Part shown: positions 3,395 to 40,200 of the stretch, in pieces
Position numbering within the stretch: position 1 is the stretch's first letter
Layout: each line of letters begins with the position of its first letter
From: Planctomycetota bacterium
GTDB lineage: Bacteria; Planctomycetota; UBA8108; UBA1146
Length of the DNA stretch: 42,312 bases
Direction: 5' to 3'
Assembly (NCBI GenBank): GCA_036338595.1
Contig: JAYZBV010000102.1
Location: forward strand, 1 to 42,312
The notes under the pieces: model-generated
Database searches by the model: none
What the model was told of the DNA's origin: nothing
Seen by the model: the letters and a program-made list of their open reading frames with translations, nothing else
Program-made: the position numbers and the translations under genes

Positions 3395-6214
3395 ATGACA
3401 GGTTCGGACTTGAATTACCGGTCGCTTTCACCACTTCCCCCAATTGTCTGCAAGAGGACCTGCATCCGAACTGCAACGATGATCTTCATCGTGAGTCTGT
3501 TCGCTCAGATAGCTGCCCCCCTGTACCCGGCTGATATTTACGATGGGAGTCGGCGTGGGCCAGCGATGGAGACTGTTCAGGGAGCCCTCACGAGGGACCT
3601 TGAATCGGTGCTGGGAGATGAAACCGCTGCCACCATGACCCTTTCATGGGTTCGCCAGCCCTCAGAGAACAGGGTATTTGCAGGATGGGTACAGGAGATC
3701 GATGGGATTCCGGTTCGTGGAGGCTTGGGCCGAAGCATGGCTCTCAAGGATCCGATGACGGGTCAATGGTCAGTCACCTACCGAGCGTTCAGATATTCAG
3801 TTCCTGAAGAAGTTCCGCAGCCGGTGCTCGAATCTGGGGCTGCGCTGGAGATCGCCAGTGTAGGCCACTCGAAACGACAGTGGTCTATTCCGCGACTGGA
3901 ACTCGCTCCTGGAAAAGATGGCGATCCGACCCTGTGCTGGGTCATCGATGGCACATCGACCATCCCGGGACATCACAGTAGCATCCGGATCGATGTCGAT
4001 GCCCGTATCGGGTTGGTGGTCGCTGTCGAGGAGCAGATCTGTGAGATCGACATTCCAGGGTCCGTGGACACCTTCCGGACCGAGGGAACGGGTCCTCCGG
4101 CTACCACCACAACGGTGAGCTTTCCCCTCGGGGGTGCACAGGTCAGCGGAGCGGGAGTCAGCACCATTACTGCTCCCGATGGTTCCTTCTTGCTTGCTAA
4201 CGTGCCCGATAGCAACTTCACCGTGCTGGCAGGCTTGCAAGGAGAGTGGGGGCTGATCAGCAGCGCCATCCCACCCGATGTCGTGGACTCTGCCGCAGCA
4301 GATCCCGCTGGCGTGTCGCTGGTCATCAACGATCCACCCACCATCGATGGTACGGCTCAGGCAAATGCGTTTCATTACATGGATCAAGGGGTTCGATTTT
4401 TTGTTGAATCCCCCGGTGGCTTCCCGGCAATGGTGACACCGGTCACCGCCACCACATCTCTTGCAGGCAGCTGCAACGCCTTCTATGACCCAGCTCTGAC
4501 GATGCTACGTTTCCTCAGGGCTGGAGGAGGATGCGTGAATAGCGCCTATTCCTCGGTGGTGCTGCACGAATTTGGCCACCATGTGGTCGCATCCCTGGGG
4601 CTGGCGCAGCAGGCTTTTGGTGAGGGGTACGGCGATTCCCTATCGGTGATATTACTGGGCGAAGGAATCATCGGCAGGGATTTCAGTGGTCCGGGAACTT
4701 CCGTCCGCAATATTCAGAATTCCGGCGTGACGATCCCCTGTTCCGGGGGCATACACTTCTGTGGCCAGGCCCTGGCAGGATTCTGGTTTGACCTGCGGGA
4801 GACGATGATTTCGCAACTTGGACCGAGCGAAGGCGCGGCCATGATGAGGGAACTGTTCGTGGACTGGAGTAGTTTGACCCTGGGTGCTTCCGGTTCGCAG
4901 CCCTTCCATTTCAATATGCTCACGGAGATTCTCACCGTCGATGACACCGATGGGACTCTGGCCAATGGATCCCCGAACTTCGGTGCGATCTGTGCTGCAG
5001 CCCTGGCCCATGGCGTGGTGTGTCCAGAGTTGACGACCCTGGTCTTGACCCTGGAGGTTGGACCAGGCGAAGCAGTTCCTCCATCACCAGCGATCCCGGT
5101 CAGGGTGCTTGTTGAAGAGATCCTTGCCAGCCCTTTGCCCAACGGTGCCACTGTAATTTATCGCTTTGAAGGAGGGCCGTGGCAATCGTTCCTGCTGGTC
5201 GAGACAACGCCAGCGATCTATGAGGGTAATTTCCCACCAACAGCCTGCCTGGATTCCTTCGAATGGTTCGTCAGTATTCAGGACGATGCTGGAATCACCA
5301 CCACGCTTCCTCCCGATGCCGTCACACTTCCCTACTCGACCGTTGTCGTGACAGAGATCACCACGACGATGCAGGAAACCATCGCTCAGGATCCCGGCTG
5401 GAGCATCGCTGAGCCTGACGATACGGCGACTGCTGGAAGATGGGAGTGGGGGGATCCCTACGCTTCCGTTGCACAGCCGAGCGCAGGTGTCCCGGGACCG
5501 CAGGGGGACCTGACCTGCTACATGACGGGGCTCGGCGGAATCGGTCAATCACAGGGTGCTCACGATGTAGACGGAGGGGATACGACCCTCACCAGCACCT
5601 CATTTCCGATTCAGAATAGTGGCCTGCACAGGGTTTCATACTGGCGCTGGTTTTCAAATGCGACCTCTGTCACGACACCGGACGATTCACTATTTGTCTA
5701 CAGAAGCCTCGATGAAGGAACTTCCTGGCAGCTGGTCGAGGAGATTGGCAGAGGCCATCCGGAGGCTCTTGGAGGCTGGTACGAGAGTTCCTTCTGGATC
5801 CCCGAGGGGAGTTCTCCGACAGGGAGCGTGATGTTGCGTTTCCACACTGGCGACGAGGGTGCTGGCAATGTGGTCGAGGCGGGAGTGGACCTGATCTTGA
5901 TCGAGCAATTGACCTGTTCTGGAACGCCGCCACCTCCCGTTGCCGAGAACGATTTCATCAGAGGAGATTGCAATGTGGACGGCAACCGCGATCTCAGCGA
6001 TGCGATTCAGATGCTGGATGTTCTCTTTGGCAGTGGCACCGACTATCCCTGTGAGGATGCCTGCGATATCGATGACGGCGGGCAGGTGAATCTCGCCGAT
6101 GTGATCGGGTTCTTGAATGAACTGTTTCTGGGAGGACCGGGAAGTTCAACGGCCTGCGGCGCCGACACCACCTCAGATACCATAGGGTGTGAACAGGGGC
6201 TGATCTGTCCCTGA
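3395..6214 (+). CDS. Secreted M36/M4-like (gluzincin) zinc metalloprotease with propeptide, beta-sandwich domain and C-terminal dockerin-like module
   Basis: HEFGH plus downstream 'GEGYGD' third ligand. FTP/PepSY-like propeptide ('QEIDGIPV', 'VDARIG'). Hydrophobic N-terminus. C-terminal 'FIRGDCNVDG...CP'. Start placed at ATG 3395 after GGAG; the ORF track starts at 3317. Confidence 0.8.
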   Translation: MTGSDLNYRSLSPLPPIVCKRTCIRTATMIFIVSLFAQIAAPLYPADIYDGSRRGPAMETVQGALTRDLESVLGDETAATMTLSWVRQPSENRVFAGWVQEIDGIPVRGGLGRSMALKDPMTGQWSVTYRAFRYSVPEEVPQPVLESGAALEIASVGHSKRQWSIPRLELAPGKDGDPTLCWVIDGTSTIPGHHSSIRIDVDARIGLVVAVEEQICEIDIPGSVDTFRTEGTGPPATTTTVSFPLGGAQVSGAGVSTITAPDGSFLLANVPDSNFTVLAGLQGEWGLISSAIPPDVVDSAAADPAGVSLVINDPPTIDGTAQANAFHYMDQGVRFFVESPGGFPAMVTPVTATTSLAGSCNAFYDPALTMLRFLRAGGGCVNSAYSSVVLHEFGHHVVASLGLAQQAFGEGYGDSLSVILLGEGIIGRDFSGPGTSVRNIQNSGVTIPCSGGIHFCGQALAGFWFDLRETMISQLGPSEGAAMMRELFVDWSSLTLGASGSQPFHFNMLTEILTVDDTDGTLANGSPNFGAICAAALAHGVVCPELTTLVLTLEVGPGEAVPPSPAIPVRVLVEEILASPLPNGATVIYRFEGGPWQSFLLVETTPAIYEGNFPPTACLDSFEWFVSIQDDAGITTTLPPDAVTLPYSTVVVTEITTTMQETIAQDPGWSIAEPDDTATAGRWEWGDPYASVAQPSAGVPGPQGDLTCYMTGLGGIGQSQGAHDVDGGDTTLTSTSFPIQNSGLHRVSYWRWFSNATSVTTPDDSLFVYRSLDEGTSWQLVEEIGRGHPEALGGWYESSFWIPEGSSPTGSVMLRFHTGDEGAGNVVEAGVDLILIEQLTCSGTPPPPVAENDFIRGDCNVDGNRDLSDAIQMLDVLFGSGTDYPCEDACDIDDGGQVNLADVIGFLNELFLGGPGSSTACGADTTSDTIGCEQGLICP

Positions 6215-6425
6215 TCCTGTCGCAGTTCGAATTGAGAAGGTCGATGATGGCGCCCCCCTCGTCATCTCCCATCCGGTGAGAGCCCACTCGCTGACCCAGG
6301 CTTCATGGAATATGATGAACACGGGTATCTTGCCATCGAGCAGTTGCATGGATTTCACCGATTCTGGCAAGAGGATCCATCATGGAAATCAGGCGTGATC
6401 CGAACATCTCATCAGGGGGAGTTTG

Positions 6426-9323
6426 ATGTCAAAAATGCATTGTTGGTGGCTCTCCGGGGCACTTCTCATTCTCCTGGGTTCCCCGGTATCCGATCTGGTG
6501 GCGCAGGAATGGTCGGATCGCCCATACGAGCAGGAGATCACCTCGGCGCTTGCCAGTTTCTCAGAGCAGTATCCGGCGGTCAGGCAACACCGGGACAGAC
6601 TGGGAAGAACCTATCTCTTTGGGGCCCCCATCACCCGCGGTGTTAGCGAACTGGATGCGGTGCAACTGTTCTTGCAGCAGAACGCGCCATTGTTTGGCAT
6701 CTACAACAGCGATCTGGAATTGATCTATGAGACGGAGTTGCTCGACCAGGCAGCCACGGTTTTTGCATATCGTCAGATGATAGACGGTGTGCCGGTTGAG
6801 TTTTCAGCGTTCCGCATCCTGGTCAGGCCGGACCTGATCACAGGGGATCATGTGGTTGTCTACGCAGCCGGCCATCTGGCACTACAACCACTGAGAGGGT
6901 ATGCACCGGTCCAGTTGACACCTGAACAGGCGACCAACATTGCACGTAGAGAACTGCCTGAAATCGATTCTTCCCTGTGGTCACACGGCGATCTGGTGAT
7001 CCAGGCGAGTGCGAATCTGGGTATCGATTCTCGACTCGTCTATCGGGTCAAGGCGATCGATCCCGCGCGTGCCATTGATTTGAGTGTGATCATCGACCCG
7101 GAAACAGGACAGCTGATCGAGATCCGCGACGACATCATTCATGTGGATGTAGAGGGAGTGGTGCGCGGCAGGATCAGCCAGAATAATCGCCCCGATACCG
7201 CCTCCAATCCTGCTGTAGAGCAGGGAGTGGGAGCCGTCCCCGTCTCCATCTCAGGAAGTGGATCCACCCACTCTGCACTCGATGGTTCTTTCACCTGTCC
7301 CCATGGCGGCACAGCCCCGGTGAATCTGGGATCATCACTGGTAGGAACCTGGGTCAGGGTTGAAAACGATGCTGCAGTCAATCTCACGGTGACCACTCCA
7401 GCAACTCCTCCAGGGCCAGCGACTGTACAGTTGAATCCGGTTTCAGATCCGCTGATCCAGGCGCAGGTGAATGCTTTTCATTACACCAATATCACTCACG
7501 ATTTCATCAGAGACCGGACCGCCTCTGGTATTGCTGGTATCGATGTGCCGATCCAGTGCAACGTCAACATCTTGGATACGTGCAATGCATTCTTCAGTCC
7601 TGGCGCACAGAGCATCAACTTCTACCAGGCGGGAGGTGGCTGCGTGAATACAGCTTACTCCAGCGTTGTTTCTCACGAGTATGGACACTTCATTGTTGAC
7701 CGCCTTGGGCTGGGACAGGGGGGATTCGGTGAGGGGTACGGGGATCTGATGAGTATGCTCATCTACGACGACCCCATCATCGGCCACGACTTCGCAGGAC
7801 CGGGAACTCAGGTGAGAAATCCTGTAGCTGCCAACATCCAGTACCCCTGCCCGTCGAGTTCGGTTCACACATGTGGCCAGATTCTTGGAGCCTGTTTCTG
7901 GAAAATTCGCGAAAACTTTGGCGCTGTTTTCGGATCAGCAGAGGGCCTGACTCAGGCGCAGCAACTGTTCGTGGACTGGAGCCTGGTCACTCTGGGTGGT
8001 TCTGGAGACTCCAGTGCTCACCCACAAACAGTGATCGAGGTGCTCACTGTCGATGATGACGACACCACTCTCGATAACGGAACACCCAACTTCACCGAGA
8101 TCTGCGCAGCATTTGAAGAACACTCGATCAGTTGTCCGATTTCCCCCGCTCTCCTGATCTCCGTCCCGATCGGGCTCCCCGGATTCATTCAACCCCAGAC
8201 CGAACAGTCGGTCCGGCTTCAGGTCCTGGCGGGGACGCAGGAACCAGATCCGAGTTCAGGGCAGATGTTCCTTCGCCAGGGGCCGGGGCCCTTCACCCCG
8301 TACCCGGTAGAACTGATCTCTCCCGACGAGTATGAGTCCATCATTCCAGGTATTCCGTGTGGCGAGATGGTCGAATACTACTTCAGCTTTGGTGACCTCT
8401 CGGGCGGAGTTCACACGGCACCCCCTGCGGGTGCGACAGCCGCGTTCACGGCCCCCGTGCTGACAGAGCAGTTGATCCTGATCGAGGACCCGTTCGAAGA
8501 TGACCTGGGTTGGACTGTCGGTGCGCCTTCGGATACGGCGACGACCGGTGTCTGGACCAGGGTGACGCCGATCGGAACCGTCGCGGCACCCGGTGCGGAC
8601 CACTCCAATTCGGGTAGCCAGTGCTGGGTGACTGGCCAGGGATCGGTCGGAGGCTCGCAGGGAGAGAATGATGTCGATGGCGGTCCCACCACCTTGTTTT
8701 CACCGATTCTCGATCTGACAGCCGCTTCCTCTTCAGGATCGACCGCATATTCGATCGAGTACTGGCGCTGGTATGTCAACGGTACCGGTGCGACGCCTTA
8801 TACCGATCCCTTCATCGTTGCGATCAGCAGTGATCTGGTGAACTGGGTCACAGTGGAGCAGGTGGGGCCACAGAACGGCCCGGACACCAATGGCGGCTGG
8901 ATCCGGCACTCCTTCGATCCGTCTGATCTGGTGTCCCTCACCAGCACGGTCCAGTTGCGATTCGTCGCTGCGGATCTCAATGATGGGTCGATTGTCGAGG
9001 CAGGAATCGACGACTTCTTGGTTCAGTCCAATACCTGTGAAGATGGACCTACATTCAGAAGGGGAGATCCCAACGGAGACGGAGGCACAGATATCTCCGA
9101 TACGGTGGCGATCTTGCAGTACCTGTTCGCAAGTGCCACGCTCGACTGTCTCGATGCTGCAGACATCTTTGATACCGGTACGATCAACATCTCCGATGCC
9201 ATCGCACTGGTCACTTTCCTGTTTGCAAATGGAGATGCTCCCGCTGAGCCATTTCCGGCCTGTGGCGTTGATCCTGGAAGCGACACTCTGGACGAGTGTA
9301 TCGGTGCAGGATCCTGCCCCTAG
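6426..9323 (+). CDS. Secreted M36/M4-like zinc metalloprotease, paralog of the upstream gene, with C-terminal dockerin-like module
   Basis: Signal peptide, 'YRQMIDGVPV', 'IIDPETG', HEYGH...GEGYGD, and 'FRRGDPNGDG...CP'. RBS GGGGGAG. Confidence 0.82.
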   Translation: MSKMHCWWLSGALLILLGSPVSDLVAQEWSDRPYEQEITSALASFSEQYPAVRQHRDRLGRTYLFGAPITRGVSELDAVQLFLQQNAPLFGIYNSDLELIYETELLDQAATVFAYRQMIDGVPVEFSAFRILVRPDLITGDHVVVYAAGHLALQPLRGYAPVQLTPEQATNIARRELPEIDSSLWSHGDLVIQASANLGIDSRLVYRVKAIDPARAIDLSVIIDPETGQLIEIRDDIIHVDVEGVVRGRISQNNRPDTASNPAVEQGVGAVPVSISGSGSTHSALDGSFTCPHGGTAPVNLGSSLVGTWVRVENDAAVNLTVTTPATPPGPATVQLNPVSDPLIQAQVNAFHYTNITHDFIRDRTASGIAGIDVPIQCNVNILDTCNAFFSPGAQSINFYQAGGGCVNTAYSSVVSHEYGHFIVDRLGLGQGGFGEGYGDLMSMLIYDDPIIGHDFAGPGTQVRNPVAANIQYPCPSSSVHTCGQILGACFWKIRENFGAVFGSAEGLTQAQQLFVDWSLVTLGGSGDSSAHPQTVIEVLTVDDDDTTLDNGTPNFTEICAAFEEHSISCPISPALLISVPIGLPGFIQPQTEQSVRLQVLAGTQEPDPSSGQMFLRQGPGPFTPYPVELISPDEYESIIPGIPCGEMVEYYFSFGDLSGGVHTAPPAGATAAFTAPVLTEQLILIEDPFEDDLGWTVGAPSDTATTGVWTRVTPIGTVAAPGADHSNSGSQCWVTGQGSVGGSQGENDVDGGPTTLFSPILDLTAASSSGSTAYSIEYWRWYVNGTGATPYTDPFIVAISSDLVNWVTVEQVGPQNGPDTNGGWIRHSFDPSDLVSLTSTVQLRFVAADLNDGSIVEAGIDDFLVQSNTCEDGPTFRRGDPNGDGGTDISDTVAILQYLFASATLDCLDAADIFDTGTINISDAIALVTFLFANGDAPAEPFPACGVDPGSDTLDECIGAGSCP

Positions 9324-11644: not shown

Positions 11645-12316
11645 TTGCCGAGCGAGTCCGAGGAAAACTATCTGAGGGCGCTGTGGAAACTCACCAGAGG
11701 GCCTGAGCAGTGGATAGCCACCGGGAAACTGGCAGATCGTGTCGGGGTGTCGCATCCTTCCGCAACACGAATGGCCGGTCGCCTCGGGGATCAGGGCTGG
11801 GTCGAGCATGAGCCGTATCGAGGAGTTCGTCTGACCGCCACCGGTAGAGAACTCGCCATCCAGACCGTCCGGCGCCATCGAATCCTCGAATCATACATCT
11901 CCACGATTCTCGGCGTTCCCTGGGATCAGGTCGATGCAGAGGTGGAACGCCTCGAGCATGCAGTCAGTGATGATCTGATCTGCAGGATGGAGGAGGCACT
12001 CGGATTTCCAGTTCGCGATCCACACGGTTCGCCGATTCCCGATCGGGATGGTCGCTTGCCGGCGACCGTCGAGGAAATCCCTCTCACGGAGGCACCCATC
12101 GCAGTGGCCCTCGAAGTGGTTCGAGTCATCGACGCTCAACCCGATGTGCTTCAATGGCTCGGCGAGCGAGGAGTGACTCCAGGGTCAAGGATTACCATCG
12201 AGGCGAGAGAACCTGGTGGTGGTCCGTTATTACTGATGTCGACCGGTACCGACCGTCCAGTGGCTCTCAGTGGAACACTGGCCAGCAGTATCGAGGTGAT
12301 CCAGGTCGAGAGTTAG
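11645..12316 (+). CDS. mntR: DtxR/MntR family metal-dependent repressor with C-terminal FeoA/SH3-like domain
   Basis: 'SEENYLRAL', HTH, 'PYRGVRLT..G...A....RRHRILE', 'EVERLEH', 'DPHGSPIP'. RBS AGGAGG. Confidence 0.9.
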   Translation: MPSESEENYLRALWKLTRGPEQWIATGKLADRVGVSHPSATRMAGRLGDQGWVEHEPYRGVRLTATGRELAIQTVRRHRILESYISTILGVPWDQVDAEVERLEHAVSDDLICRMEEALGFPVRDPHGSPIPDRDGRLPATVEEIPLTEAPIAVALEVVRVIDAQPDVLQWLGERGVTPGSRITIEAREPGGGPLLLMSTGTDRPVALSGTLASSIEVIQVES

Positions 12317-13581
12317 GATTCCTCGGAGTCCAATCCCGATTCAATTCGCCGGGTGAACTCATCATCCAGGTGATGTTCGATCCTGTGTGCCGGATCATCG
12401 AGATGGTCGGAAGCCAGGCCCAACCGCTCTGCGGCGAAGCGTCGCCACAGCCCACGCTTCTTCAGAAGCGCCCGGGCAATCCGCTTCCCTCTCCCCACGG
12501 GAACCCCATCTCTGAGGTAACCCCTGACCCCGAGCAGCACTCTTGAACTGCCTCGAAGAAGCCTCGCGGATAAGGGCAATGGAGCAGGGGGGAGGGCTTC
12601 ACTTGGCTCGGCTGCTTCGATGTTCCCCGTCTCATCGGTGCCTTCAGCGAGCAGATATGATTCTGCCAGGATGTCTTCCATCTCGACTCGAAGTGCCCAG
12701 ATGAGACGCCTCGCCGTTGCGGGGATCAGTCCCCTCGACGGAGCGAGCAGGATGGCGCCCATCAGCAACAGTCCAGAAGATGAAGCCATCATTCCGGGTA
12801 CGCCGGTATTGAATCGCTCAGCACCGATGGTGCCCAGAACAGCAGAGAGAATTCCTGCGAGAGTCGAGACGATCACCATCGTGCTCATCCTGTTACAGAG
12901 CAGGTGAGCGATGGTTGCGGGGACCGCGAGCATGGCGATCACCAGTATCGACCCTACAGCCTCGAAGCAGGCCACGGAGGTGATGGCGACCAGAATCAGA
13001 AGGCCTTGCTCCAGTTTTCTGAAGGGAAGTCTCGATGCCCGTGCGAGTTCGGGGTCAAAGGCACAGAGCTTCCACTCCTTCCAGAACAGCAGGGATGCAA
13101 TGATGTTGATCACAAATGCTCCCAGCACGGGTGTCAGCGACCGGGGAAGTGATTGTCCAAACCACTCGACCTGATGAATGGGTGCGAGTTCGACCATTCC
13201 GTAGAGAACACACCCGGGGTCGAGGTCAACATCACGAGCAAAGATCTCGACGAGGATGATACCGAGTGCAAACAAACTCGTGAAAACGACACCCAGAGCT
13301 GCACCGGCATCGACGCCAGCTCGATCCCGCAGCCATTCAGCGACGGTGGAAACGACAATTGCAGCGACCAGAGCCCCCACCATCATCGGCAGCAGATCCC
13401 TGGAACCACTGAGCACGAATCCGATGACAAGGCCTGGCAAGACTCCGTGAGCGATGGCATCTCCGAGCATCGCTTTTCGCCTGAGAACAAGTTGTGCACC
13501 GAGGATGCCACAGGCTCCTGCTGCGCAGGCTGCAACCGAGAGGATCTGCCAGCCGACCGGAGAGAGGATGCTATCGATCAT
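12313..13581 (-). CDS. Mn/Zn/Fe ABC transporter permease (TroD/MntD-like) with C-terminal DtxR-like tail
   Basis: ABC-3 motifs 'LGDAIAHGVLPG', 'DLDPGCVLYG', 'FDPELA', 'VGSILVIAML'. Soluble tail contains 'DDPAHRIEH'. Confidence 0.9.
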   Translation of the reverse strand: MIDSILSPVGWQILSVAACAAGACGILGAQLVLRRKAMLGDAIAHGVLPGLVIGFVLSGSRDLLPMMVGALVAAIVVSTVAEWLRDRAGVDAGAALGVVFTSLFALGIILVEIFARDVDLDPGCVLYGMVELAPIHQVEWFGQSLPRSLTPVLGAFVINIIASLLFWKEWKLCAFDPELARASRLPFRKLEQGLLILVAITSVACFEAVGSILVIAMLAVPATIAHLLCNRMSTMVIVSTLAGILSAVLGTIGAERFNTGVPGMMASSSGLLLMGAILLAPSRGLIPATARRLIWALRVEMEDILAESYLLAEGTDETGNIEAAEPSEALPPAPLPLSARLLRGSSRVLLGVRGYLRDGVPVGRGKRIARALLKKRGLWRRFAAERLGLASDHLDDPAHRIEHHLDDEFTRRIESGLDSEES

Positions 13582-14798
13582 GGCATCTCTCGATCATCGA
13601 TGGATCGCTGGAGAGTTTCGATCAACTCTGGCGACAGTATCTTTTCAATCTCGACCTCGTCGAGGTCGATGAGGTCCCTGTCGATCGACGCCTCCGAGGT
13701 GAGCCACTCGCGCCAGATCTCCAGAGCCTTGCGAGCTCGTGTGGCCCGGATATGGCCAGTTTCTGTGAGACTGATCAGATCCCCTTCACGGCGTACCCAG
13801 CCACTCTGGACAGAATGCTCGAGGGATCTGAGATCGATGCTGGAGGCACTCCCAGGAATCTGGTCGATGGCGATCTGCATCTGTCCCTGGAGTTGCGCTT
13901 CGAGAATTGCGTCGAGGAGGTGACGAATCGTACGCTTGCGGCTGCGAGACCGCGCCAGTAGATGACGGCTCAGCAGCCCCCGTCTCGGTGCTAGAAGAAG
14001 TGAACCAACGAAGAAACCGGTAGCACTGAGGACGATGACGGGGCCAGCTGGAAGATCCGGGTGTGAAGTGCTGATCAGGGTGCCGAGGATTCCAGATCCA
14101 GCGCCCAGTAGCGCAGAGATTCGCAGCAACGGATCGAAGCGATCGGTCCAGAATCGAGCAGACGCTGCCGGGATCACGACAAGTGCTGCAGTCAGGACCA
14201 CGCCCACTGCTGGGAGTGCAATCACGATGGTCGCTGCCAGCAGGGATGTCTGCAGCAGGTCGATCGACCTGGTGGGTATTCTGGAAGATGTGCCGAAGCG
14301 GGGATCGAAGCAACTGACCAGCAGTTCCTTGCGCAACAAGAAGACGATCAAACTCATCACGATGGCTGCACAGCCGAAGGTGATCGCCTCGGATCGGAGC
14401 ATGCCAGCAGTTCTTCCCAGTAGCAGTCCATCGAGCCCTGCAGCGGACCCCCCGCTCCCGGAGCGCTGGATCAGGCCGACCAGTGCAATCCCTGCTCCAA
14501 ACATCACGCCCAGCACACACGCTGTTGCTGCGTCCTTTCGGATTCGAGAGACTCGGGGTAACCAGGCGACGAGCGCTGCGGCCACCAATGCGCTGACGAG
14601 GGCTCCGGCGCCGAGAGCGAGTACCGAGCGGCTGTTTGCCAGCAGAAAGGCGATACAGATCCCCGGCAAGGTCGAGTGTGCGATCGCATCTGCCAGCAAT
14701 GCTCGCCTTCGCAGCAGCATCAGGGCCCCGATGATGCCACAACAGGTGCCCAGCGCAGTGGTCCCCAGCAAGATCACCAGGGTGTTGGGGGAGATCAT
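13578..14798 (-). CDS. Mn/Zn/Fe ABC transporter permease (TroC/MntC-like) with C-terminal DtxR-like tail
   Basis: '[13 protein letters not shown]', '[10 protein letters not shown]', '[22 protein letters not shown]'. Tail contains 'LTETGHIRA...IWREWL'. Confidence 0.9.
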
Positions 14799-15586
14799 TC
14801 CAGGTCCCTGCCGATGCGAGTCCTGCCGGTTCGGATGCGTCGGACAGCCTCGGCAGCTTCATCGAGAAGTGTCAGGCGGCCTCCGTAGGTTCGCATCAGG
14901 TTTTCTCTGGTGAAGGTCTCCGAGGTGGGGCCAGCAGCGACCAGGCGCAGGTTCAATAGCAGGACATGGTCGAAGAACTGTTCGATGGTCTGTAGATCAT
15001 GGTGGACCAGCACAACAGTTCGACCTTTTTTCTTCAGGTCCTCGAGCACAGTGCGGATCGCCTCCTCGGTTGCGGCATCGACACCGGCAAATGGCTCGTC
15101 CATCAGGATCAGTTGTGAGTCCTGAGCCAGTGCTCTGGCGATGAACACTCGCTGCTGCTGGCCACCGGAGAGTTCTCCGACCTGCCTGTGTCGCAGGTCG
15201 GTCATCCCCACCGATTCCAGGCACTCCATCGCCCAGTCTCGCTGAGCCTTGCCAGGTCTGCGGAACCAGCCGAGCTGGCTGTATGTTCCCATCAACACCA
15301 CGTCGAGGACTTCGACCGGAAAATCCCAATCGACACTCTCGCGCTGGGGCACGAAGCCGATCAACTCTTCAGATCGGTCCAGCGGTTTGTCGAAGATCTT
15401 CAACCAGCCGCTCGCGGGGCGAATGGTACCGAGGATTGCGGAGAGCAACGTGCTCTTGCCGGCACCATTGGGACCTACGATGGCACAGAGCGATCCGACT
15501 GGAATCACCGCATCGATGTCCCAAAGCACGGGTTTTTCCCGGTAGGCGACCGTCAGGTCGTGAATCTCGATGGCGGGGCGCGTCAT
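14795..15586 (-). CDS. Metal ABC transporter ATP-binding protein (TroB/MntB)
   Basis: Walker [10 protein letters not shown], '[12 protein letters not shown]', LSGGQQQR, Walker B LMDEPF. Confidence 0.95.
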
Positions 15587-16509
15587 CGAAGCGCCTCGGA
15601 GATCACCCGTGCGTCGTGAAGCACCATGTCACGCCACCTCGCTGCTCCAGACCCGGCTGGTCCCGGTGCATCACTGTAGAGCACTCCGCCGATTTCAAGC
15701 GAATGGCCCAGCGATGAGCAGCCCTCGATCAAGGCTCTGATATTGCGTTCCGGGACCGTCGATTCGACGAAGACGGCAGGTACACTCCGCTCGCTGAGAG
15801 TGGCGACGAGTGTGTTGACTCGATCGATGGATGCCTCGGATTCAGTACTGATGCCCTGGATTCCCATCACCTCGAGACGGTAGCGCCTACCGAAATAGCC
15901 GAAGGCATCATGTGCAGTCACAAGGATTCTTCGCTTCTCTGGAATCTTGGCCAGCATCTGCATCACCTGCTCATCGAGCAGTACCAGTTCTTCGTCGAGA
16001 TGATCTGCAGCGGATCTGAAATAATCCCGGTGATCAGGGTCGAGTTCGGAGAGTACGAGTTCCATCTGCTCGATCACATCTTGCCAGAGAGAGATGTCCA
16101 TCCAGAGATGCGGATCAATCGTTCCTGCAGAGGATCGGATCAGCCGCTGGTCATCGATTCGCTCGCAGATGGCAATGAAACGACGGTTCGCTACTTCGCG
16201 ATGTTCGCCACCGTGACCCCCCAGAATCTGACCCATCCTGCCTTCGAGGTGGTGGCCATGAAACAACACGAGATCGGCATCGAGGATCCGCTGAACATCG
16301 CCTGGAGACGGCTTGTACAGATGAGGATCGACTCCGGCGCCCATCAGCGAGGTGACATCTGCGTGTGGACCACAGAGTGTGCGCATCGGTCCGGCCAGCA
16401 TCTCGGTGGTGCAGAGAATCTGGACCGCGGTCTTCGGCGAGAGAGTGCCGGGAGACTCGCAGCCGAAACCGAGCATCAGGAGTAGAAGCGAGCAGGTGAA
16501 GGTACGCAT
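15583..16509 (-). CDS. Metal ABC transporter substrate-binding lipoprotein (TroA/MntA)
   Basis: Lipobox-like 'LLMLGFGC' and His3-Asp site motifs 'VDPHLY', 'DPHLW', 'TAHDAFGYF', 'LYSDA'. Confidence 0.93.
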
Positions 16510-16714: not shown

Positions 16715-18334
16715 TTGATCAGATCATCTGGACTCGAGACGTCGCTGTTGCGAGGCGTCTGGACGCTGTTATTGCTTTCTGCAGGCCCGGGCCTGCTGGC
16801 AGTGGATATTCTCGTTCCCGCCGATGTACCGACCATCTCAGGAGCCATCTCGATCGCCGTCGATGGCGATCAGATCCTCGTTTCTCCGGGTACCTGGAAC
16901 GAGGCGATCGATCTCGATGGCAAGGAAATCGTGATCCGGTCTCAAGATGGTCCAGCTGTGACCATCATCTCCGGCACTCTCGATAATCCGGTGGTTCGCA
17001 TCAACTCGGGCGAAACGGAACTCACCGGCCTCGAAGGATTCACGATTCGCGGTGGTGGAGGGATCCTGCTCAATGGAGTTCGCAAGGGCGGTGGCATCTA
17101 TATCAACGATGCGTCACCTCGAATCACCAATTGCATCATCGAGGAGAACCAGGCGACGGTCGGTGCTGGCATCGCCATCGATGGGGGTAACACCAGTACC
17201 CTTGTTCTCGAACAAGTCGTGATCAGGATGAATACAGCGCTCGACTCTGGCGGTGGGCTTGCGATCACCGGATCAGCGACGGGAATCTCGATGACGGAAT
17301 GCACGCTGGAGCAAAATCATGCAAACATCGTTGCGGGAGGACTCTACTGCGAGGCTTCCAGCATCGAGCTCCAATCGTGTTTGATTCTCGACAACACCTC
17401 AGACCTCCTGGGCGGTGGCATCTGGCTTTACAGTCAATCCGATTGCATCTTTCAGGATTGTGAAATCGCCGGCAACACGACCGTGGTTACGGGTGGAGGT
17501 CTGATCGTCTCCGACTTATCGAGGGTGACACTCGATCACTGCCTGGTGCGCAACAACATCGGCGGAACCAGCGGTGGTGGCATGTTGATCGACTCTGGCG
17601 ATTCGGGAGAGACTCAGGTCATCCGGTTCTGTGTCTTTCTGGGCAACTCCGCGGTCTCCAGCGGTGCCAATCTTGGAGTCAGTGTCAACCAGGCTGATAT
17701 TTACCTCGAGAGGTGCACCTTCGGGCCTCCAGCGGCGAATTCACCGCTGAATGTCACCATCAATAACAACAATCCGGAGGTCGTCGTATTCGATTCCTGC
17801 ATCGTGGTCGGAGGATCGTTACAGGCGATCCAGGCCCAACCAGGTTCCACGATCGCTTTCTACAGTTGCATCGAGGGCCTCGCAAATTCAGGAGTGACCC
17901 CGATCGCATGCATCGATGAAGACCCACTCTTCATCGATCTTGCCGCCGGCAATCTTGGACTCGGAGTGGGATCTGACTGTATCGATACCGGCAACCCCAT
18001 GCTTCCTGCAGATGAAGACGGGTCACCTGCTGATATGGGCGCACTGGGGCCGGATGGCGTCGGCTATTTCCGTCGTGGCGATGCAGATGCCAGCTCTACT
18101 GCAAATCTGGCCGACGCCGTGCAGATCCTCGCGATGCTCTTCATCCCCGGGAGCAATGTGGTCGGTTGTGCGGATGCGGCAGATTGCAATGACGATGGAG
18201 TTCTCAACATCACCGACGCTGTGCTGCTGCTCGACAACCTGTTTGTCACGGGAATTCCCTTGCCGGATCCCGTCAATGACTGCGGTGGGGACCCCACTCC
18301 GGATTCTCTGGACTGCAGCAGCGTCTGCCCCTGA
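16715..18334 (+). CDS. Secreted right-handed parallel beta-helix repeat protein with C-terminal dockerin-like module
   Basis: Signal peptide, 'VPADVPTISGAI..A.DGD.I.V.PGTW.E.I', repeated 'N.A..GGG(I/L)' beta-helix turns, 'CIDTGNP', and 'FRRGDAD...CP'. Confidence 0.8.
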   Translation: MIRSSGLETSLLRGVWTLLLLSAGPGLLAVDILVPADVPTISGAISIAVDGDQILVSPGTWNEAIDLDGKEIVIRSQDGPAVTIISGTLDNPVVRINSGETELTGLEGFTIRGGGGILLNGVRKGGGIYINDASPRITNCIIEENQATVGAGIAIDGGNTSTLVLEQVVIRMNTALDSGGGLAITGSATGISMTECTLEQNHANIVAGGLYCEASSIELQSCLILDNTSDLLGGGIWLYSQSDCIFQDCEIAGNTTVVTGGGLIVSDLSRVTLDHCLVRNNIGGTSGGGMLIDSGDSGETQVIRFCVFLGNSAVSSGANLGVSVNQADIYLERCTFGPPAANSPLNVTINNNNPEVVVFDSCIVVGGSLQAIQAQPGSTIAFYSCIEGLANSGVTPIACIDEDPLFIDLAAGNLGLGVGSDCIDTGNPMLPADEDGSPADMGALGPDGVGYFRRGDADASSTANLADAVQILAMLFIPGSNVVGCADAADCNDDGVLNITDAVLLLDNLFVTGIPLPDPVNDCGGDPTPDSLDCSSVCP

Positions 18335-25532: not shown

Positions 25533-25545
25533 CGGCTTCCGTGGT

Positions 25546-26661: not shown

Positions 26662-29252
26662 TGTGGGTCTCCCTTCAGTGTCTCGACGGTCCACGGTAGG
26701 ATTCGGCCTGCAGTCGAGCGGCGTAGCTCGCTCACCTTCTGCGGATCGATGGGGTCGCCCGCATGGCCCCACTGGCGTCGGGCCCAGGTCAACACCGCGG
26801 CGATGCCCTCATCATCGAGCAGCGGGTTCTCGCGGTGTCCCGGCATCGTGATGTCCCACGTTTCCCCGTCGACTTCCACCGGGCCGGTGAGCCCATCGAG
26901 AACCAGGCGGATGGGAATACTCTCCTCACCCAGCAGCCAGCGGCTGTCGATCAACGACGGCCCGAGCCCGGGTTGCCCCTTACCCGACGGGCCATGACAG
27001 AGTGCACAGGAGGAGGCGAACGCCACCGCACCCCGACTGGCGAGTCGGCGCTGGGATTCGGTCCATGGCGTGACTTCGGGCAACGACGAGGGATCGAAGG
27101 TGAGGCGGGTGATGATGGCCTGCGCATCCTCAGTCACTGCAGCGGGTAGATCCTCTCGCTCCAGTACTGGCGGGATGATGGCGAGCACCGGCGCCTTCCA
27201 GCGCTTGTCAGCCGCGGTCACCTGGATACCCCCGAGAATCGCGGCAAGGCGCGGATCGGAAGATTCGAGATCATCGAGCGAGTCGAGCAACAAGCCGAGA
27301 GAGGAGGGGTGGGAACGCAGTGCGGATCGGGTGGTTTCCTTGAGCAGAGCTTCGCGGCCCTCGAAAGGGTCGATGTGGTTGCCGAGAAAACGTCCGATCC
27401 GCTCGATCTGGTAATTCTTCCAGCCGCTCAGTGCCGCCATGCGGATGTTGGCGTTGGTTCCATCTCGTCGGAGGATGTCGAGCATCGCAGCGAGGGCGTC
27501 GGGGTGGTCGGGGAAGCTTCCGAGTGCCATGACTCGGTGAATCTTTTCGATCTCGGAGAGTTGAGCCGTGTTGGCAGCGAGAGCCGCGACCAGTGGGGCT
27601 ACTTCGGCTTCAGCGATCGGCGTGGGTTCGGCGATGATCCGACAGGCGGTACGGCGAACCAGTTCTTGATGATCCTGGAGAGCGCTGGTGAGGAGTTCGC
27701 CATCCAGTGCCCCCAGTCCACTCAGAGTCCAGAGCGCATGGAGTCGCCCGGTCGCCATCGAGTCGATGGAGCTGGCGAGTTGCTTCAATTCATTCACCGG
27801 TGCCGAACTTCCCGCCTCGACCAGCAGCCGCTGCGCCGTATCACGGACCCAGCCGACCGGATGGTCGAGTGCCCGGATGCGCCCCGCTTCCCCGGACAGC
27901 AACCCCAGTGGTTCGATCTGGGCCTGTTCGTCATCGGCGACGATTCGCCAGATTCTGCCGAGGCCGATGGGCTGTTCCAGTTTTCGCTCCTCGACCTGCT
28001 TGCGTAGATACGAGGTGACGAACTGGCGGTGCTGGACGACGCCGCGATAGATGTCGACAACGTACAGGTTGCCATCGGGGCCGACCTCGACATCGACGGG
28101 TCGGAATCGTTCATCGGTGGAGGCGAGGAATGCCTGCTTGACATACTGGTCGTGGGGGAAGGTCAACTGCTCCCCCGTGAGCCTTGCGCCCTGCTCCTGC
28201 ATCCTGAATGCGCCGACCAGATTACCTGTGGTCTCGGCGACGAAGGCAACGCCATTCCAGTCATCACCCCAGCGATGGCTGCGGAAGATGGTCAGGCCGG
28301 CGGCGGATGTGTTGCGACGCAGTCGTCCATCCTCCCTCAGCATGCCCGGCTGGTACCCGCGGTTGATTCCGGTATTCATCCGCACCGGCCAGGTCGACTC
28401 GTCGGTGATGACCCGATGACCGGAGCGACCCGGTTGCCCCACCGGTTTGCCGCAATTGGGATTACGAAGCAGCAATTCGGTGGGCAGTGGATCGCACTGT
28501 ACCCAGGTCGAGTTGTGATTGAAGAAGAGCCGTCCGAGGTCGTCCTGAGCGAGGCCCCACTGGCCGCGGAAGGCTGTGGTAGCCATCTCGATGGTCGGTT
28601 TTCCATCGACCACATCGAAACGAAATCTGCGTCTGCTCTTTGAATTGTAGTACCAGTTGTCGACGGTGCGAAGCAGTGCACTTTCTGTGTGCTCCACCAC
28701 ATCGGGATTGGCATCGCCGTAACGTGCCACTTCTGTTCTCAGGTCAGAACGAAGATCGCCGTCGAGATCTCGGCAGTACCACAGATGCGGCGGTTCGGCG
28801 ATCAGCACTCCACCCTCGACGATGGAGATGGCGCGTGGGCTGACCAGGCCGTCGAGAAACACGGTGCTCTGCTCGTAGCGACCGTCCCCATCGAGGTCTT
28901 CCAGTACCACGACCTGCCCCAGGGGATCCGTCTCGCCATCGCCATCGACGGTTCTCATGTAGGCTCGAAGTTCCACGGCCCACAGGCGCCCCTTCTCATC
29001 CCAGGCGATGGCGATGGGATCGACCACGTGTGGCTCACAGGCAGCCAGTTCGACATGAAAACCGGGGGCGACCTGGAAGGACGCGAGCGCCTGCTCGGGA
29101 GAGAGCACCGGAGCCGGTGGAACATCCCACTGTCGCCAGTTCTCATTCTGTGTTTCGCCGGATCGATCGCCGTTTTGACCCGGCAGCGTTGGTCCAGTCA
29201 GAACCAACACGGCCATCCAGCAGCACGAAAGAAACTTGTGGGGAATGCTCAT
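26658..29252 (-). CDS. PVC-type membrane-bound dehydrogenase domain (beta-propeller) + HEAT-like repeats + cytochrome c protein
   Basis: 'SPEQALASFQVAPGFHVELAACEP..VDPIAIAWDEKGRLW', 'FRPVDVEVGPDGNLYVVD', 'RIWRI', heme motif CALCH, 'TMPG'. Start placed at MSIPHK. Confidence 0.88.
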   Translation of the reverse strand: MSIPHKFLSCCWMAVLVLTGPTLPGQNGDRSGETQNENWRQWDVPPAPVLSPEQALASFQVAPGFHVELAACEPHVVDPIAIAWDEKGRLWAVELRAYMRTVDGDGETDPLGQVVVLEDLDGDGRYEQSTVFLDGLVSPRAISIVEGGVLIAEPPHLWYCRDLDGDLRSDLRTEVARYGDANPDVVEHTESALLRTVDNWYYNSKSRRRFRFDVVDGKPTIEMATTAFRGQWGLAQDDLGRLFFNHNSTWVQCDPLPTELLLRNPNCGKPVGQPGRSGHRVITDESTWPVRMNTGINRGYQPGMLREDGRLRRNTSAAGLTIFRSHRWGDDWNGVAFVAETTGNLVGAFRMQEQGARLTGEQLTFPHDQYVKQAFLASTDERFRPVDVEVGPDGNLYVVDIYRGVVQHRQFVTSYLRKQVEERKLEQPIGLGRIWRIVADDEQAQIEPLGLLSGEAGRIRALDHPVGWVRDTAQRLLVEAGSSAPVNELKQLASSIDSMATGRLHALWTLSGLGALDGELLTSALQDHQELVRRTACRIIAEPTPIAEAEVAPLVAALAANTAQLSEIEKIHRVMALGSFPDHPDALAAMLDILRRDGTNANIRMAALSGWKNYQIERIGRFLGNHIDPFEGREALLKETTRSALRSHPSSLGLLLDSLDDLESSDPRLAAILGGIQVTAADKRWKAPVLAIIPPVLEREDLPAAVTEDAQAIITRLTFDPSSLPEVTPWTESQRRLASRGAVAFASSCALCHGPSGKGQPGLGPSLIDSRWLLGEESIPIRLVLDGLTGPVEVDGETWDITMPGHRENPLLDDEGIAAVLTWARRQWGHAGDPIDPQKVSELRRSTAGRILPWTVETLKGDPQ

Positions 29253-29257
29253 CGAGG

Positions 29258-29593
29258 TCAGTCCTTCGCCGGCGGGGTCGATTTCCCTGTCAACTTTCGG
29301 AAGCCCTCCTGGATGATGAAGAGTGGGCCGATCAGCAGGAATCTTGGATCCTTCATGAAGGATGGTTTGTTTCCCTCGATTCCGTGGCCGATGAACTGGA
29401 GGATCCAGCCACCGACGAACAGACCGACACCCCATTGCCAGTTGAAGAAGACCACGACGAGCGAGGCGACGATGGCGGGGATCCCTATGAAGTGGGTGAG
29501 GTGGTTGAGCGGGTGGTTGTGGTCAGCGCGGTAGCGATCGATCCATTTGCTGACGGCGCCTGGACCATCCGGCGATGGTGCTGCTTCGGGCAT
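29258..29593 (-). CDS. DUF962 / Mpo1-like membrane protein
   Basis: 'Y..DHNHPLNHLTHFIGIP', 'GWILQFIGHGIEGNKPSF'. GGAGG precedes ATG 29593. Confidence 0.88.
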   Translation of the reverse strand: MPEAAPSPDGPGAVSKWIDRYRADHNHPLNHLTHFIGIPAIVASLVVVFFNWQWGVGLFVGGWILQFIGHGIEGNKPSFMKDPRFLLIGPLFIIQEGFRKLTGKSTPPAKD

Positions 29594-34642: not shown

Positions 34643-34669
34643 TTGTTGCGGACCACGATCGGTCCCGGC

Positions 34670-37634: not shown

Positions 37635-38411
37635 GTGGATCTAGACTGGGCTCTGATCGTCGCTGCAGGGGTCGTGGGGGGAGCCGTGAATACTCTCGTC
37701 GGTGGCGGCACGATGATCGTGCTTCCGCTGCTGGTGTTTCTCGGCATCGATCCGCTCGTCGCCAACGGCACCAACAGGATCTGCGTTGCCTTCCAGGGTG
37801 CCGTGGCTGGTTGGACGATGAATCGGGGGCTGAGGAGACAGGCGGATCCGAAGCAAAGAGTACTGACGGTGGGTTGGAAACCGATTCTTCTGGTCGGTTT
37901 GGCAGCGATTCCGGGGGCGTGGGGGGCCATCGAGATCGAGAGCATCGATGCGAGCATCTTCCGGCAATTGATGGGGTGGGTGCTGTTGATTGCGGTGGGT
38001 GCCTTTCTGTTACCGAGGCCGAAACAAGCTCAGGACTCAGATGATGGGATGAAGCCAGGAGTTGTTTTCTACGGCGGTTGCATACTGTGCGGACTTTACG
38101 GCGGCTTCATCGGCGCCGGAGTGGGAGCCTTCATCGTGTTGCTGTTGACCACCTCGTTACGGTTGACCGTGGTGGATGCGGTGCGCTGGAAGGTCTGGTG
38201 CGTGATGGCGATGTCAGCGGCTTCCGGAACATGGTATCTGGCGAGCGGCGTGATCGATGCCCGAGTGGCGATCCCACTGATCCCGGCCTATGGCGTCGGA
38301 GCCTATCTGGGAGGTCGGATGGCTCTGAGGGGGGGAGACCGCCTGTTACGCCCGTTGGTGGCGCTCCTCAGTGCTGGTTTGGCCCTCTCGATAATTTTCG
38401 GTGGAATTTGA
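37635..38411 (+). CDS. TauE/SafE (TSUP) family membrane transporter
   Basis: 'GAVNTLVGGG', 'VANGTNR', 'GLYGGFIGAGVG', multiple TM segments. Confidence 0.9.
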   Translation: MDLDWALIVAAGVVGGAVNTLVGGGTMIVLPLLVFLGIDPLVANGTNRICVAFQGAVAGWTMNRGLRRQADPKQRVLTVGWKPILLVGLAAIPGAWGAIEIESIDASIFRQLMGWVLLIAVGAFLLPRPKQAQDSDDGMKPGVVFYGGCILCGLYGGFIGAGVGAFIVLLLTTSLRLTVVDAVRWKVWCVMAMSAASGTWYLASGVIDARVAIPLIPAYGVGAYLGGRMALRGGDRLLRPLVALLSAGLALSIIFGGI

Positions 38412-38721
38412 GGGGAAGAAACTGGCATCGGGCGCGGCAAGAAGAGTGACCTGCAATTTGCCCTGAATCGCCAACTCCAGGCTATTGAATACCTGGATGA
38501 AGGGGTAAAATCGCTGATACGGCCCACAGTGAAGAGGAATGGGTCCGGAATAGGCTGTGTTTCCGCTATCGGCAACTACTGATCCACATTTCTACCAGGC
38601 GCGGATGATATTCGTGTACTTCGAATCGCCTGGAACAGTGTCGAGCGGCAGATCCAGCACTGCGACCAGATACCGTAATTGTTCAAAATTTGGGCGACCC
38701 ATAGCCCTCAGGAGGTGGACG

Positions 38722-40200
38722 ATGACCAGGTTCCCGATCTCACTGATTCTCCTGCTCATGCTGTGCCTGGCAGGCACCAGCGATGCTCGAGATTTTCAGA
38801 GAGGGGATGTCAATGAGGATGGAAACTTCGACATCGCCGATGGCATCCAGATGCTGGATTACATGTTCGTCGGTGGAACCGTCGTTTATTGCAAGTCTGC
38901 TTACGACCTCGACGACGATGGTTCCCTCGATCTGTCAGACGCCATCTATGGTTTCATCTACCTGTTTCAGAATGGCCCTCCTCCAGAGGCCCCGTTTGGA
39001 TTCTGTGGTGAGGATCTGACACCGGATTCGCTCGGCTGTGAGTCCTATGCCACATGCACCATCGGGGATGCGATGCAGGGTCTTGATCAGGCGACTTTTG
39101 ACTCGTTCCTGCGAGGCAGGGACCTGATGCATAAAGAGTTCACTGCGGAAGAGGGTCTGGGCCCGTACTACAACGCAACCAGCTGCGTCGCGTGCCACAG
39201 CACTCCGGGCGTGGGAGGATCTTCTCCGATCTACAGGAACTTTTTCTTCGCCGCTATCGGACCTCCTGGCAATCAGGGACCGATCTGGGATCCGGACGAT
39301 GTGCCCAGCATCGTGATGCCCTCCTATACGATTCCAGGTGGGGTGCGGGGTGGTTCGCGACCCTCGATTCCGGATTCCTCTCAGGTGGGCGGACTTCAGG
39401 TCACTGTTGCGCAACGGAATGCGCCTCCTGGTCTAGGAGTTGGACTCTTCGAACTGATCTCTGATGTCGAGATCATCTCGAACACCGATCCAGATGACGC
39501 CGATGGAGATGGAATCAGCGGGCGGTATAACACCGATGGATTGGGCAATATCGGCCGATTTGGATTCAAGTCGCAGGCGAACTTTCTGGAGGCTTTCCTT
39601 CGCGGTGCCTTCAACAACCAGATGGGAATCACGACCGATCCCTTCCAGGGATCGGACGGTCTCGTCAGTGCGGCGATGATGCAAGTTGGAGCCGGGCCTG
39701 ATGATTCCACCGAAGACCTGGACGGCGTGGCAGACCCGGAAATCTCGGTGGAGGACCTCGGCGACATCGTGATCTTCAGCAAGTTTGTTGCACCCACGCC
39801 TCGCGGAACGATGGGTTCCGAGGAGATGCTGGGTGAAACGCATTTCTTTCAGATGAGTTGTAACAAGTGTCACATTCCTGATCTGCAGTCGTCGGTAGGA
39901 CCGGTCAACGCCTACACAGACCTGTTGCTCCATGACATGGGGCCAGATCTGGCAGACGGAATCTCGCAGGGGATGCCACAGTTCAGTACCATCTCACCTC
40001 TTCTCACCTCGAATGAGTTCAGAACCCAACCCCTCTGGGGAGTTCGACATCACGGGCCCTGGCTCCACGATGGAAGAGCCGACACCATCAGTGACGCGAT
40101 CTTGATGCATGGAGGCGAGGGCCAGGCGTCGAGAGACGCTTTTGATTTACTGAGCCCTTCTGAGCAAGAAGCGGTGATCCGATTCCTGGAGGCGCTGTGA
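38722..40200 (+). CDS. Secreted di-heme oxidoreductase (DHOR/DUF1111) family protein with N-terminal dockerin-like module
   Basis: Signal peptide, 'FQRGDVNEDG' module, 'GLGPYYNATSCVACH', 'DPDDADGDGISGR', 'GRFGFK', CNKCH, 'YTDLLLHDMG', 'FRTQPLWG...LHDGRA'. GGAGG precedes ATG 38722. Confidence 0.9.
   Translation: MTRFPISLILLLMLCLAGTSDARDFQRGDVNEDGNFDIADGIQMLDYMFVGGTVVYCKSAYDLDDDGSLDLSDAIYGFIYLFQNGPPPEAPFGFCGEDLTPDSLGCESYATCTIGDAMQGLDQATFDSFLRGRDLMHKEFTAEEGLGPYYNATSCVACHSTPGVGGSSPIYRNFFFAAIGPPGNQGPIWDPDDVPSIVMPSYTIPGGVRGGSRPSIPDSSQVGGLQVTVAQRNAPPGLGVGLFELISDVEIISNTDPDDADGDGISGRYNTDGLGNIGRFGFKSQANFLEAFLRGAFNNQMGITTDPFQGSDGLVSAAMMQVGAGPDDSTEDLDGVADPEISVEDLGDIVIFSKFVAPTPRGTMGSEEMLGETHFFQMSCNKCHIPDLQSSVGPVNAYTDLLLHDMGPDLADGISQGMPQFSTISPLLTSNEFRTQPLWGVRHHGPWLHDGRADTISDAILMHGGEGQASRDAFDLLSPSEQEAVIRFLEAL

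Follow-up and report, generated by a model that had tools for sequence, protein, structure and literature searches.

Cohesin–dockerin assembly is best known from cellulose-degrading Firmicutes, and the known cohesin–dockerin systems outside cellulosomes comprise a handful to a few dozen modules. Pseudobacteroides cellulosolvens is reported to have 78 cohesin modules (PMC5590126), the amylosome of Ruminococcus bromii is reported to use cohesins and dockerins outside cellulose degradation (PMC4611034), and the ScaA dockerin of Ruminococcus flavefaciens is reported to be closed by an intramolecular clasp (PMC3821032). Here we describe a module of 87–90 residues that is encoded four times in a 42,312-nucleotide contig of a Planctomycetota bacterium (GTDB lineage UBA8108; UBA1146; contig JAYZBV010000102.1 of assembly GCA_036338595.1). 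This whole stretch is called the window below. By sequence profile and predicted fold, the first two thirds of the module correspond to a divergent type I dockerin, which is followed by a Cys-rich tail. The genome holds 145 of these dockerins together with 73 domains of predicted cohesin fold, numbers comparable to those of P. cellulosolvens. On balance, we favor the view that the module is a type-I-like dockerin with a disulfide-stapled tail, and that it docks in a calcium-dependent manner onto the cohesin-like domains, which are encoded elsewhere in the genome.

When translated, four forward-strand stretches of the window (5951-6214, 9051-9323, 18065-18334 and 38791-39060) gave copies of one module, which aligned with 22 invariant columns and with 38–47% identity to copy 1. 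Translation and alignment thus confirmed the four modules that a preliminary description, made from the sequence of the window, had placed there. Four Cys are conserved across the copies, and copy 1 bears an extra loop-to-loop Cys pair at profile columns 7 and 38. Three of the four (copies 1–3) end their protein with Cys-Pro-stop. In a genome search, a profile built from the four copies recovered them at E 2e-44 to 3e-38, so that their likeness is not due to chance.

The module contains an internal repeat, seen as a self-similarity peak at an offset of 33 columns, and has the architecture of type I dockerins, in which a segment of about 22 residues, made of a calcium loop (D-x-N-x-D-G...D) and a helix, is duplicated in tandem (consensus of repeat 1, RGDxNxDGxxDIADxIxxLxxLF; of repeat 2, AxDxNDDGxxNIADAIxLLxxLF). 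Calcium-ligand positions 1, 3, 5 and 12 are conserved in both loops in at least 124 of the 145 genome copies. When a profile of 35 genome copies was compared with the PDB, type I dockerins of cellulosomes ranked first (2y3n_B, E 4.8e-6; 1daq, E 1.2e-5), with matches over profile positions 4–59. The Pfam model Dockerin_1 (PF00404) matched 27 of 35 genome copies at E<0.1 (best 5.1e-7), and 14 of the 139 carriers outside the window exceeded its cut-off, at 23.4–33.4 bits. A dockerin-like structure had been set beforehand as a test of the preliminary description, and this is what was predicted. An AlphaFold2 model of the copy at 9051-9320 reached a mean predicted local distance difference test (pLDDT) score of 91.4, with helices at residues 15-26, 34-37 and 47-58, and it matches the dockerin fold of two anti-parallel helices, a short connecting helix and two calcium loops. 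In a Foldseek search with this model, ranks 1–31 were all dockerins, with target-normalised template modelling (TM) scores of 0.52–0.83 and root-mean-square deviations (rmsd) of 1.4–2.8 A; the best E, for so small a domain, was 6.8e-3. Pairwise comparison with dockerins in VIA-align gave Z 7.1–10.3, the best Z at an rmsd of 1.3 A over 67 residues. By sequence profile and predicted fold, residues 1–60 of the module are a divergent type I dockerin.

Compared to cellulosomal dockerins, the planctomycete module has an invariant Arg before loop 1 and a Pro/Cys-rich tail of about 30 residues (consensus GGxxPPAPxPxCGxDPTxDxLDCxxxxxCP), which is present in none of the solved dockerins; VIA-align found no counterpart of module residues 69–90 in any that it matched. 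Residues 60–80 are modelled at pLDDT 87–96 without regular secondary structure, and the last ten residues average 67. Two disulfides are suggested by the Cys pattern of the copies, the counts of which come from paralogues, are not independent and overstate significance: C34 occurs in 142 of 145 copies and C83 in 137, C34 and three tail Cys are found together in 101 of the 140 full-length copies, and in 24 of these 140, C72 and the final Cys (C89) are jointly lost while C83 is retained. Since C72 and the final Cys vanish together and C83 remains, the pattern fits a pairing of C34 with C83 and of C72 with C89. The Cys at columns 7 and 38, one per calcium loop, are both present in 33 copies, both missing from 99 and single in 13. 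The co-occurrence of Cys is clear in the aligned copies, and their paired gain and loss supports the disulfide stabilisation that had been proposed for the module. In the ScaA dockerin, the termini are tied for stability through non-covalent contacts, whereas the clasp suggested here would consist of disulfides (C34-C83, C72-C89) in an added tail and would thus be a covalent version.

The module is not confined to a few genes. In the genome (2.9 Mb, 88% complete, 114 contigs), the four-copy profile gave 147 matches, and a six-frame search yielded the 145 module domains in 143 frames. These carrier frames amount to 94,632 residues, or about 9.8% of the genome, a slight overestimate in that residues were counted from the most upstream start codons. 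Signal-peptide-like N-termini were found in 121 of the 126 carriers with a complete 5' end, compared to 700 of 1688 control frames, by a heuristic that is permissive, although the examples look like classical signal peptides. Given these N-termini, an RTX-like role with type I secretion was rejected as unlikely. In a Pfam scan (139 carriers at E<=1e-4, taking the top five families of each protein, and the four window carriers at E<=1), the carriers matched more than 35 families among the matches listed. The cargo includes M4 and M12 peptidases, P-domains, purple acid phosphatases, endonuclease I, CCP/MauG and DHOR haem enzymes, arylsulfotransferases, penicillin amidase, glucose/sorbosone dehydrogenase, DUF1800 and a cupredoxin, along with C-type and legume lectins and FG-GAP, HYR, PKD, cadherin, TIG and Calx-beta repeats. 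No family beyond Dockerin_1 was matched at E<=1e-4 in 74 of the 143 carriers, and single-linkage BLAST clustering joined 102 carriers via shared repeats. Among the Pfam matches listed for the 143 carriers there is no glycoside hydrolase and no carbohydrate-binding module (CBM) family; the predicted assembly thus falls outside the definition of a cellulosome, in which plant-cell-wall glycoside hydrolases with dockerins are gathered on a scaffoldin that has a cellulose-binding module. This agrees with the non-cellulolytic assembly that had been anticipated.

The genome also encodes a candidate partner, the distribution of which is restricted to the same class as that of the module. The Pfam Cohesin model (PF00963) gave six weak matches in the genome, one of them above the cut-off and most of them inside carriers. 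An iterative hidden Markov model seeded from a ten-gene array on contig C15 defined a domain of about 157 residues, with its 73 copies in 46 frames. None of these frames lies on contig C102, in agreement with the earlier remark that no cohesin is visible in the window. When a 67-copy profile of the domain was compared with the PDB, 16 of 19 matches were cohesins, at E 4.5e-6 (4uyp_A) to 9.3e-6. The AlphaFold2 model of the domain (pLDDT 97.5, nearly all beta-strand) matches the nine-stranded beta-sandwich of cohesins. Foldseek ranks 1–49 were all cohesins (best E 2.2e-7, TM up to 0.79), and ranks 22–25 included the non-cellulosomal cohesins of Archaeoglobus fulgidus (2xdh) and of Clostridium perfringens glycosidases (2vo8, 2w1n). 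Two whole proteins exceed the Pfam Cohesin cut-off, at 26.3 and 25.8 bits. The domain is unannotated because its single copies rarely match the Pfam model.

Cohesin-like domain and module mostly occur in the same proteins. The module is present in 43 of the 46 cohesin-bearing frames; two of the other three are cut by contig ends and the third is a lipoprotein. In 28 proteins, a signal peptide and one module frame one (8 proteins), two (15 proteins) or three (5 proteins) cohesin-like domains and nothing else, and 15 more proteins combine other domains with a cohesin-like domain and the module. The 100 carriers without a cohesin-like domain comprise 94 in which the module follows the cargo at the C-terminus and 6 in which it is N-terminal or internal. 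On contig C15 (21370-42559, forward strand), ten consecutive genes all end in the module, to which nine of them add no more than a signal peptide and two or three cohesin-like domains; runs of module genes like this array also occur on contigs C19, C40 and C57. All five of the three-cohesin proteins, which are paralogues, share a distinct dockerin tail variant, a hint, by analogy, of the separate dockerin types found on scaffoldins. A metagenome relative of 1676 residues has five tandem cohesin-like domains followed by a module, so larger scaffoldins exist among relatives. Other metagenome proteins (P0019 and others) carry 3–7 full modules per chain; the maximum in the window genome is two. 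As for the common scaffold envisaged in the preliminary description, many small cohesin–dockerin connector proteins look likelier than one large scaffoldin.

Two kinds of protein may connect such an assembly to the cell. Judged from its sequence, the lipoprotein on contig C84 (Table 1) is a candidate membrane anchor. Its signal ends in LIIGGC and is followed by a Gly-rich linker, and its He_PIG domains are immunoglobulin-like. Five genomes of the same genus encode full-length orthologues (473–483 residues), and the two orthologues that were examined (L201, L202) have kept the lipobox and likewise stop at the cohesin. Among the carriers there are two anti-sigma factors of the zf-HC2 type, one on contig C33 and one on contig C93 (2227-2895, forward strand). 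At the C33 locus (5300-6139 (-) with 5989-6723 (-)), the anti-sigma gene lies directly downstream of an extracytoplasmic function (ECF) sigma-70 gene, and the module is the only domain of the anti-sigma factor past its transmembrane segment. From this architecture, the module-bearing anti-sigma factors may sense the state of the assembly, and these copies favor a role in protein interaction over one as a secretion signal.

The distribution of the two domains is restricted. In 41 related genomes, the window's own included (19 genera, 7 families, one class), the module profile gave at least 60 matches each at E<=1e-8, with no more than 129 scored per genome, and a first look counted 77 to 626 candidates per genome. 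In an even sample of the phylum (151 Planctomycetota genomes from 137 genera), the full module at E<=1e-12 was abundant in 7 genomes, all of the window's class, gave a single match in 2 others and was not found in the remaining 142. The cohesin-like domain was abundant in the same 7 genomes, with one match in one other. A search of 1.84 billion cluster representatives returned 46,175 proteins at E<=1e-3, 25,386 at E<=1e-10 and 691 at E<=1e-30; some of these proteins are multi-copy, and the weaker matches will include ordinary dockerins. Related public contigs bear 'Planctomycetota bacterium' titles of metagenome-assembled genomes. Spread beyond the class, suggested by records titled Bacillota, Proteobacteria and Eisenbacteria (146, 136 and 4 copies), was considered and rejected; match coordinates in the 'Bacillota' (L046) and 'Proteobacteria' (L050) records coincide with those of same-genus and same-family genomes, and these titles look like mislabels. 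A word-indexed homologue search with the module region gave 9 matches, the single named one being 'hypothetical protein', and the accessible text of the literature on planctomycete or non-cellulosomal cohesins and dockerins yielded no description of the module.

Seen against known systems, the planctomycete pair is likely a non-cellulosomal cohesin–dockerin system with a Cys-stapled dockerin variant. With cellulosomal type I pairs (PF00404/PF00963; PDB 4uyp, 2ccl, 5m2o and 6kge) it has in common the duplicated calcium-loop/helix unit, placed mostly at the C-terminus of secreted proteins, the beta-sandwich cohesin domain, small adaptor-scaffoldin-like proteins and arrays of scaffoldin-like genes. 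In contrast to cellulosomes, its host is a diderm Planctomycetota lineage and not a Firmicute, nearly all cohesin frames (43 of 46) also have a dockerin, no protein of this genome has more than 3 cohesins, and about 10% of the genome is devoted to the system. Compared to the non-cellulosomal systems described so far, there are hundreds of modules per genome across a whole class, the dockerin is Cys-stapled and the cargo is mostly non-carbohydrate.

Several of these results weigh against docking of the module onto the cohesin-like domains. In the comparison with Dockerin_1 that had been proposed earlier, all four window copies stayed below the cut-off of 22.9 bits, the best of them at 18.8. The Pfam Cohesin model matched only 5 of 67 cohesin-like copies at E<0.1. 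Because single copies of both domains mostly miss the Pfam cut-offs, their homology rests on profiles and predicted folds. The co-distribution of the two domains concerns one clade and is effectively one evolutionary event, and the Cys counts, taken from paralogues, are not independent. The architecture of the anti-sigma factors points to the periplasmic face of the inner membrane for at least some modules. Two further points, the C-terminal bias of the module and its closeness to the cohesin-like domain, are best considered with the alternatives that they favor.

The module could instead be mainly a C-terminal sorting or attachment signal, comparable to the C-terminal domain of the type IX secretion system (T9SS) or to PEP-CTERM, by which a dedicated machine exports or covalently anchors the cargo. 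That machine would perhaps recognise the terminal Cys-Pro, and the cohesin-like domains would be another cargo family. We regard this as unlikely, while noting that the module occupies the same place as these signals, the extreme C-terminus of many unrelated secreted proteins, at tens to hundreds per genome. It lies within 5 residues of the stop in 129 of 145 copies, 74 of the 143 carriers end in 'CP' and the last Cys is 0–2 residues from the end in 129 of them, a bias that would also suit a sorting signal. The proteases, adhesin repeats and lectins among the carriers, and the GBD_T9SS_assoc domain in 7 of them, resemble T9SS cargo, and five secretins show that outer-membrane export routes are present. 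The fold, however, is a helical EF-hand pair and neither the beta-sandwich of T9SS sorting domains nor a transmembrane tag, and the module is not strictly C-terminal: eight of the 145 copies have an N-terminal or internal position, with over 60 residues between them and the C-terminus, two proteins bear two modules flanking a cohesin-like domain, and the two anti-sigma factors place it at a periplasmic end. No exosortase was found in the genome, which is 88% complete; SprA_N had no match either, and control genomes gave none, so this search was uninformative. A pure signal would also not explain the co-expansion of the cohesin-like domain in the same class. The preliminary description had argued for an interaction module from the N-terminal copy in the di-haem protein, and this argument is reinforced by the other non-C-terminal copies, by the two-module proteins and by the anti-sigma copies. 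Judged from protein architecture, an autonomous module is supported by the eight non-C-terminal copies, by the two-module proteins and by DHOR paralogues that carry it at opposite ends.

It appears somewhat less plausible still that the module binds a ligand other than a cohesin, such as a glycan of the envelope, peptidoglycan or an S-layer-type protein, and in this way keeps exported proteins at the cell, the cohesin-like domain being a stabilising neighbour. In 33 of the 43 proteins that have both, only 0–3 residues separate the end of the cohesin-like domain from the module. X-modules abut type II dockerins in the same way, and by this analogy the cohesin-like domain might support the structure of its own dockerin and not be a receptor for others. 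Tail residues 69–90, for which solved dockerins offer no counterpart, could form a new binding face, and the 100 carriers without a cohesin-like domain are compatible with a different ligand. On the other hand, a stabilising neighbour does not account for the 28 proteins made of a signal peptide, 1–3 cohesin-like domains and one module, for the relative with five tandem cohesin-like domains or for the conserved lipoprotein, in which the cohesin has no dockerin to stabilise. These connector, tandem and lipoprotein arrangements therefore argue for receptors rather than chaperoning neighbours. That the module has no partner at all and is a calcium- and disulfide-dependent folding or stability unit of large exported proteins seems improbable: calcium loops, two to three inferred disulfides, a confident compact model and very diverse cargo would agree with it, but it leaves unexplained the cohesin–module connectors, the anti-sigma sensors with the module alone and the joint, class-restricted expansion.

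If the module is a dockerin for the cohesin-like domains, as we favor, carriers would be exported by the Sec pathway and the module would then fold oxidatively. Disulfides C34-C83 and C72-C89 would hold the tail against the dockerin core, and in some copies a third would join one calcium loop to the other. The folded module would then bind cohesin-like domains. The 28 small proteins with 1–3 cohesins and a dockerin would act as connectors, branching or polymerising, and the 94 cohesin-free cargo proteins whose dockerin is C-terminal would plug into the network, including the proteases and the beta-helix protein of the window; the di-haem enzyme of the window would do so via its N-terminal copy. 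Conserved lipoproteins with a terminal cohesin but no dockerin would fasten the network to a membrane, and ECF anti-sigma factors with the module as their only extracytoplasmic domain would report on it. A further-reaching proposal, which we make tentatively and hold to be doubtful, is that the class spends about a tenth of a small genome on a self-assembling envelope mesh that has no master scaffold, since almost all cohesin-bearing proteins also bear a dockerin, is polymerised from connectors, proteases, redox enzymes, nucleases and adhesins, is locked by calcium and disulfides, is tethered by lipoproteins and is monitored by anti-sigma factors.

The window carriers (Table 1) are two putative proteases, a beta-helix protein and a di-haem protein, an assignment made in the preliminary description and upheld by motifs and Pfam matches. 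Carriers 1 and 2 are paralogues (33% identical). In carrier 1, all peptidase matches of the Pfam scan are sub-threshold, and translation probably starts at a codon beyond the first TTG. Carrier 2 has a signal-peptide-like N-terminus, a PepSY propeptide-type domain (E 3.7e-5) and sub-threshold M36 matches; a PDB sequence search with it found no relative. Carrier 3 has three paralogous carriers at other sites of the genome. In carrier 4, the module comprises residues 79-168, counted from the most upstream start, directly after a signal-peptide-like stretch. In a third DHOR paralogue, encoded on contig C92, the module is C-terminal, at the opposite end to carrier 4.

Table 1. Positions of the module copies, their carriers and related genes (window coordinates unless a contig is named)
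Feature	Position	Strand	Description
Carrier 1	3317..6214	+	965-aa putative zinc metalloprotease; HEFGH at residue 417; module C-terminal
Module copy 1	5951..6211	+	Dockerin-like core and Cys tail; CP-stop; E 3.4e-38
Carrier 2	6423..9323	+	966-aa putative zinc metalloprotease; HEYGH at residue 418; module C-terminal
Module copy 2	9051..9320	+	CP-stop; E 3.5e-39; copy used for structure prediction
Carrier 3	16715..18334	+	539-aa right-handed beta-helix protein (PF13229, E 4.6e-16; NosD, E 6.4e-5); module C-terminal
Module copy 3	18065..18331	+	CP-stop; E 6.9e-39; calcium loop 1 partly degenerate (D-A-D-A-S-S)
Carrier 4	38557..40200	+	Di-haem DHOR-family oxidoreductase (PF06537, E 5.7e-35); two CxxCH motifs
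Module copy 4	38791..39060	+	N-terminal; ends CT; catalytic domain after it; E 2.2e-44
Second DHOR paralogue	40197..41372	+	PF06537, E 3.5e-32; directly 3' of carrier 4; absent from module matches
Candidate anchor lipoprotein	contig C84:4405-5808	+	Lipobox, two He_PIG domains, terminal cohesin-like domain, no module

Other genes of the window include two adjacent D12-class N6-adenine DNA methyltransferase genes (PF02086; 496-3085, forward strand) and a metal-uptake cluster (11645-16509) with a DtxR-type repressor that has a FeoA domain, a ZnuA-type binding protein, an ABC ATPase and two ABC-3 permeases, one of them fused to a DtxR C-terminal domain. A 1048-residue protein (21091-24237, forward strand) shows the unusual pairing of an N-terminal FHA domain with Peptidase_M64 (IgA peptidase-like). 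On the reverse strand, a gene for a 925-residue protein with DUF7133, HEAT and cytochrome c domains (26658-29435) adjoins a 3-keto-disaccharide hydrolase-like (PF06439) gene.

The cohesin and dockerin folds, here in a Cys-stapled variant, appear to bring order to a large part of the proteins exported by an abundant, uncultured class of marine planctomycetes, and the cargo is directed at proteins, nucleic acids, phosphate esters and redox chemistry. If the predicted binding is true, it would explain how cells with small genomes keep costly exoenzymes attached in dilute seawater. It would also define a domain family without a dedicated model, of which about 25,000 cluster representatives are found at E<=1e-10, and provide a disulfide-locked docking pair that is possibly useful for protein engineering. 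The dockerin-sensor anti-sigma factors suggest a loop in which gene expression and the assembly's state feed back on each other. Should the more doubtful mesh prove true as well, it would represent a new organising principle for the diderm cell envelope and not a copy of the cellulosome.

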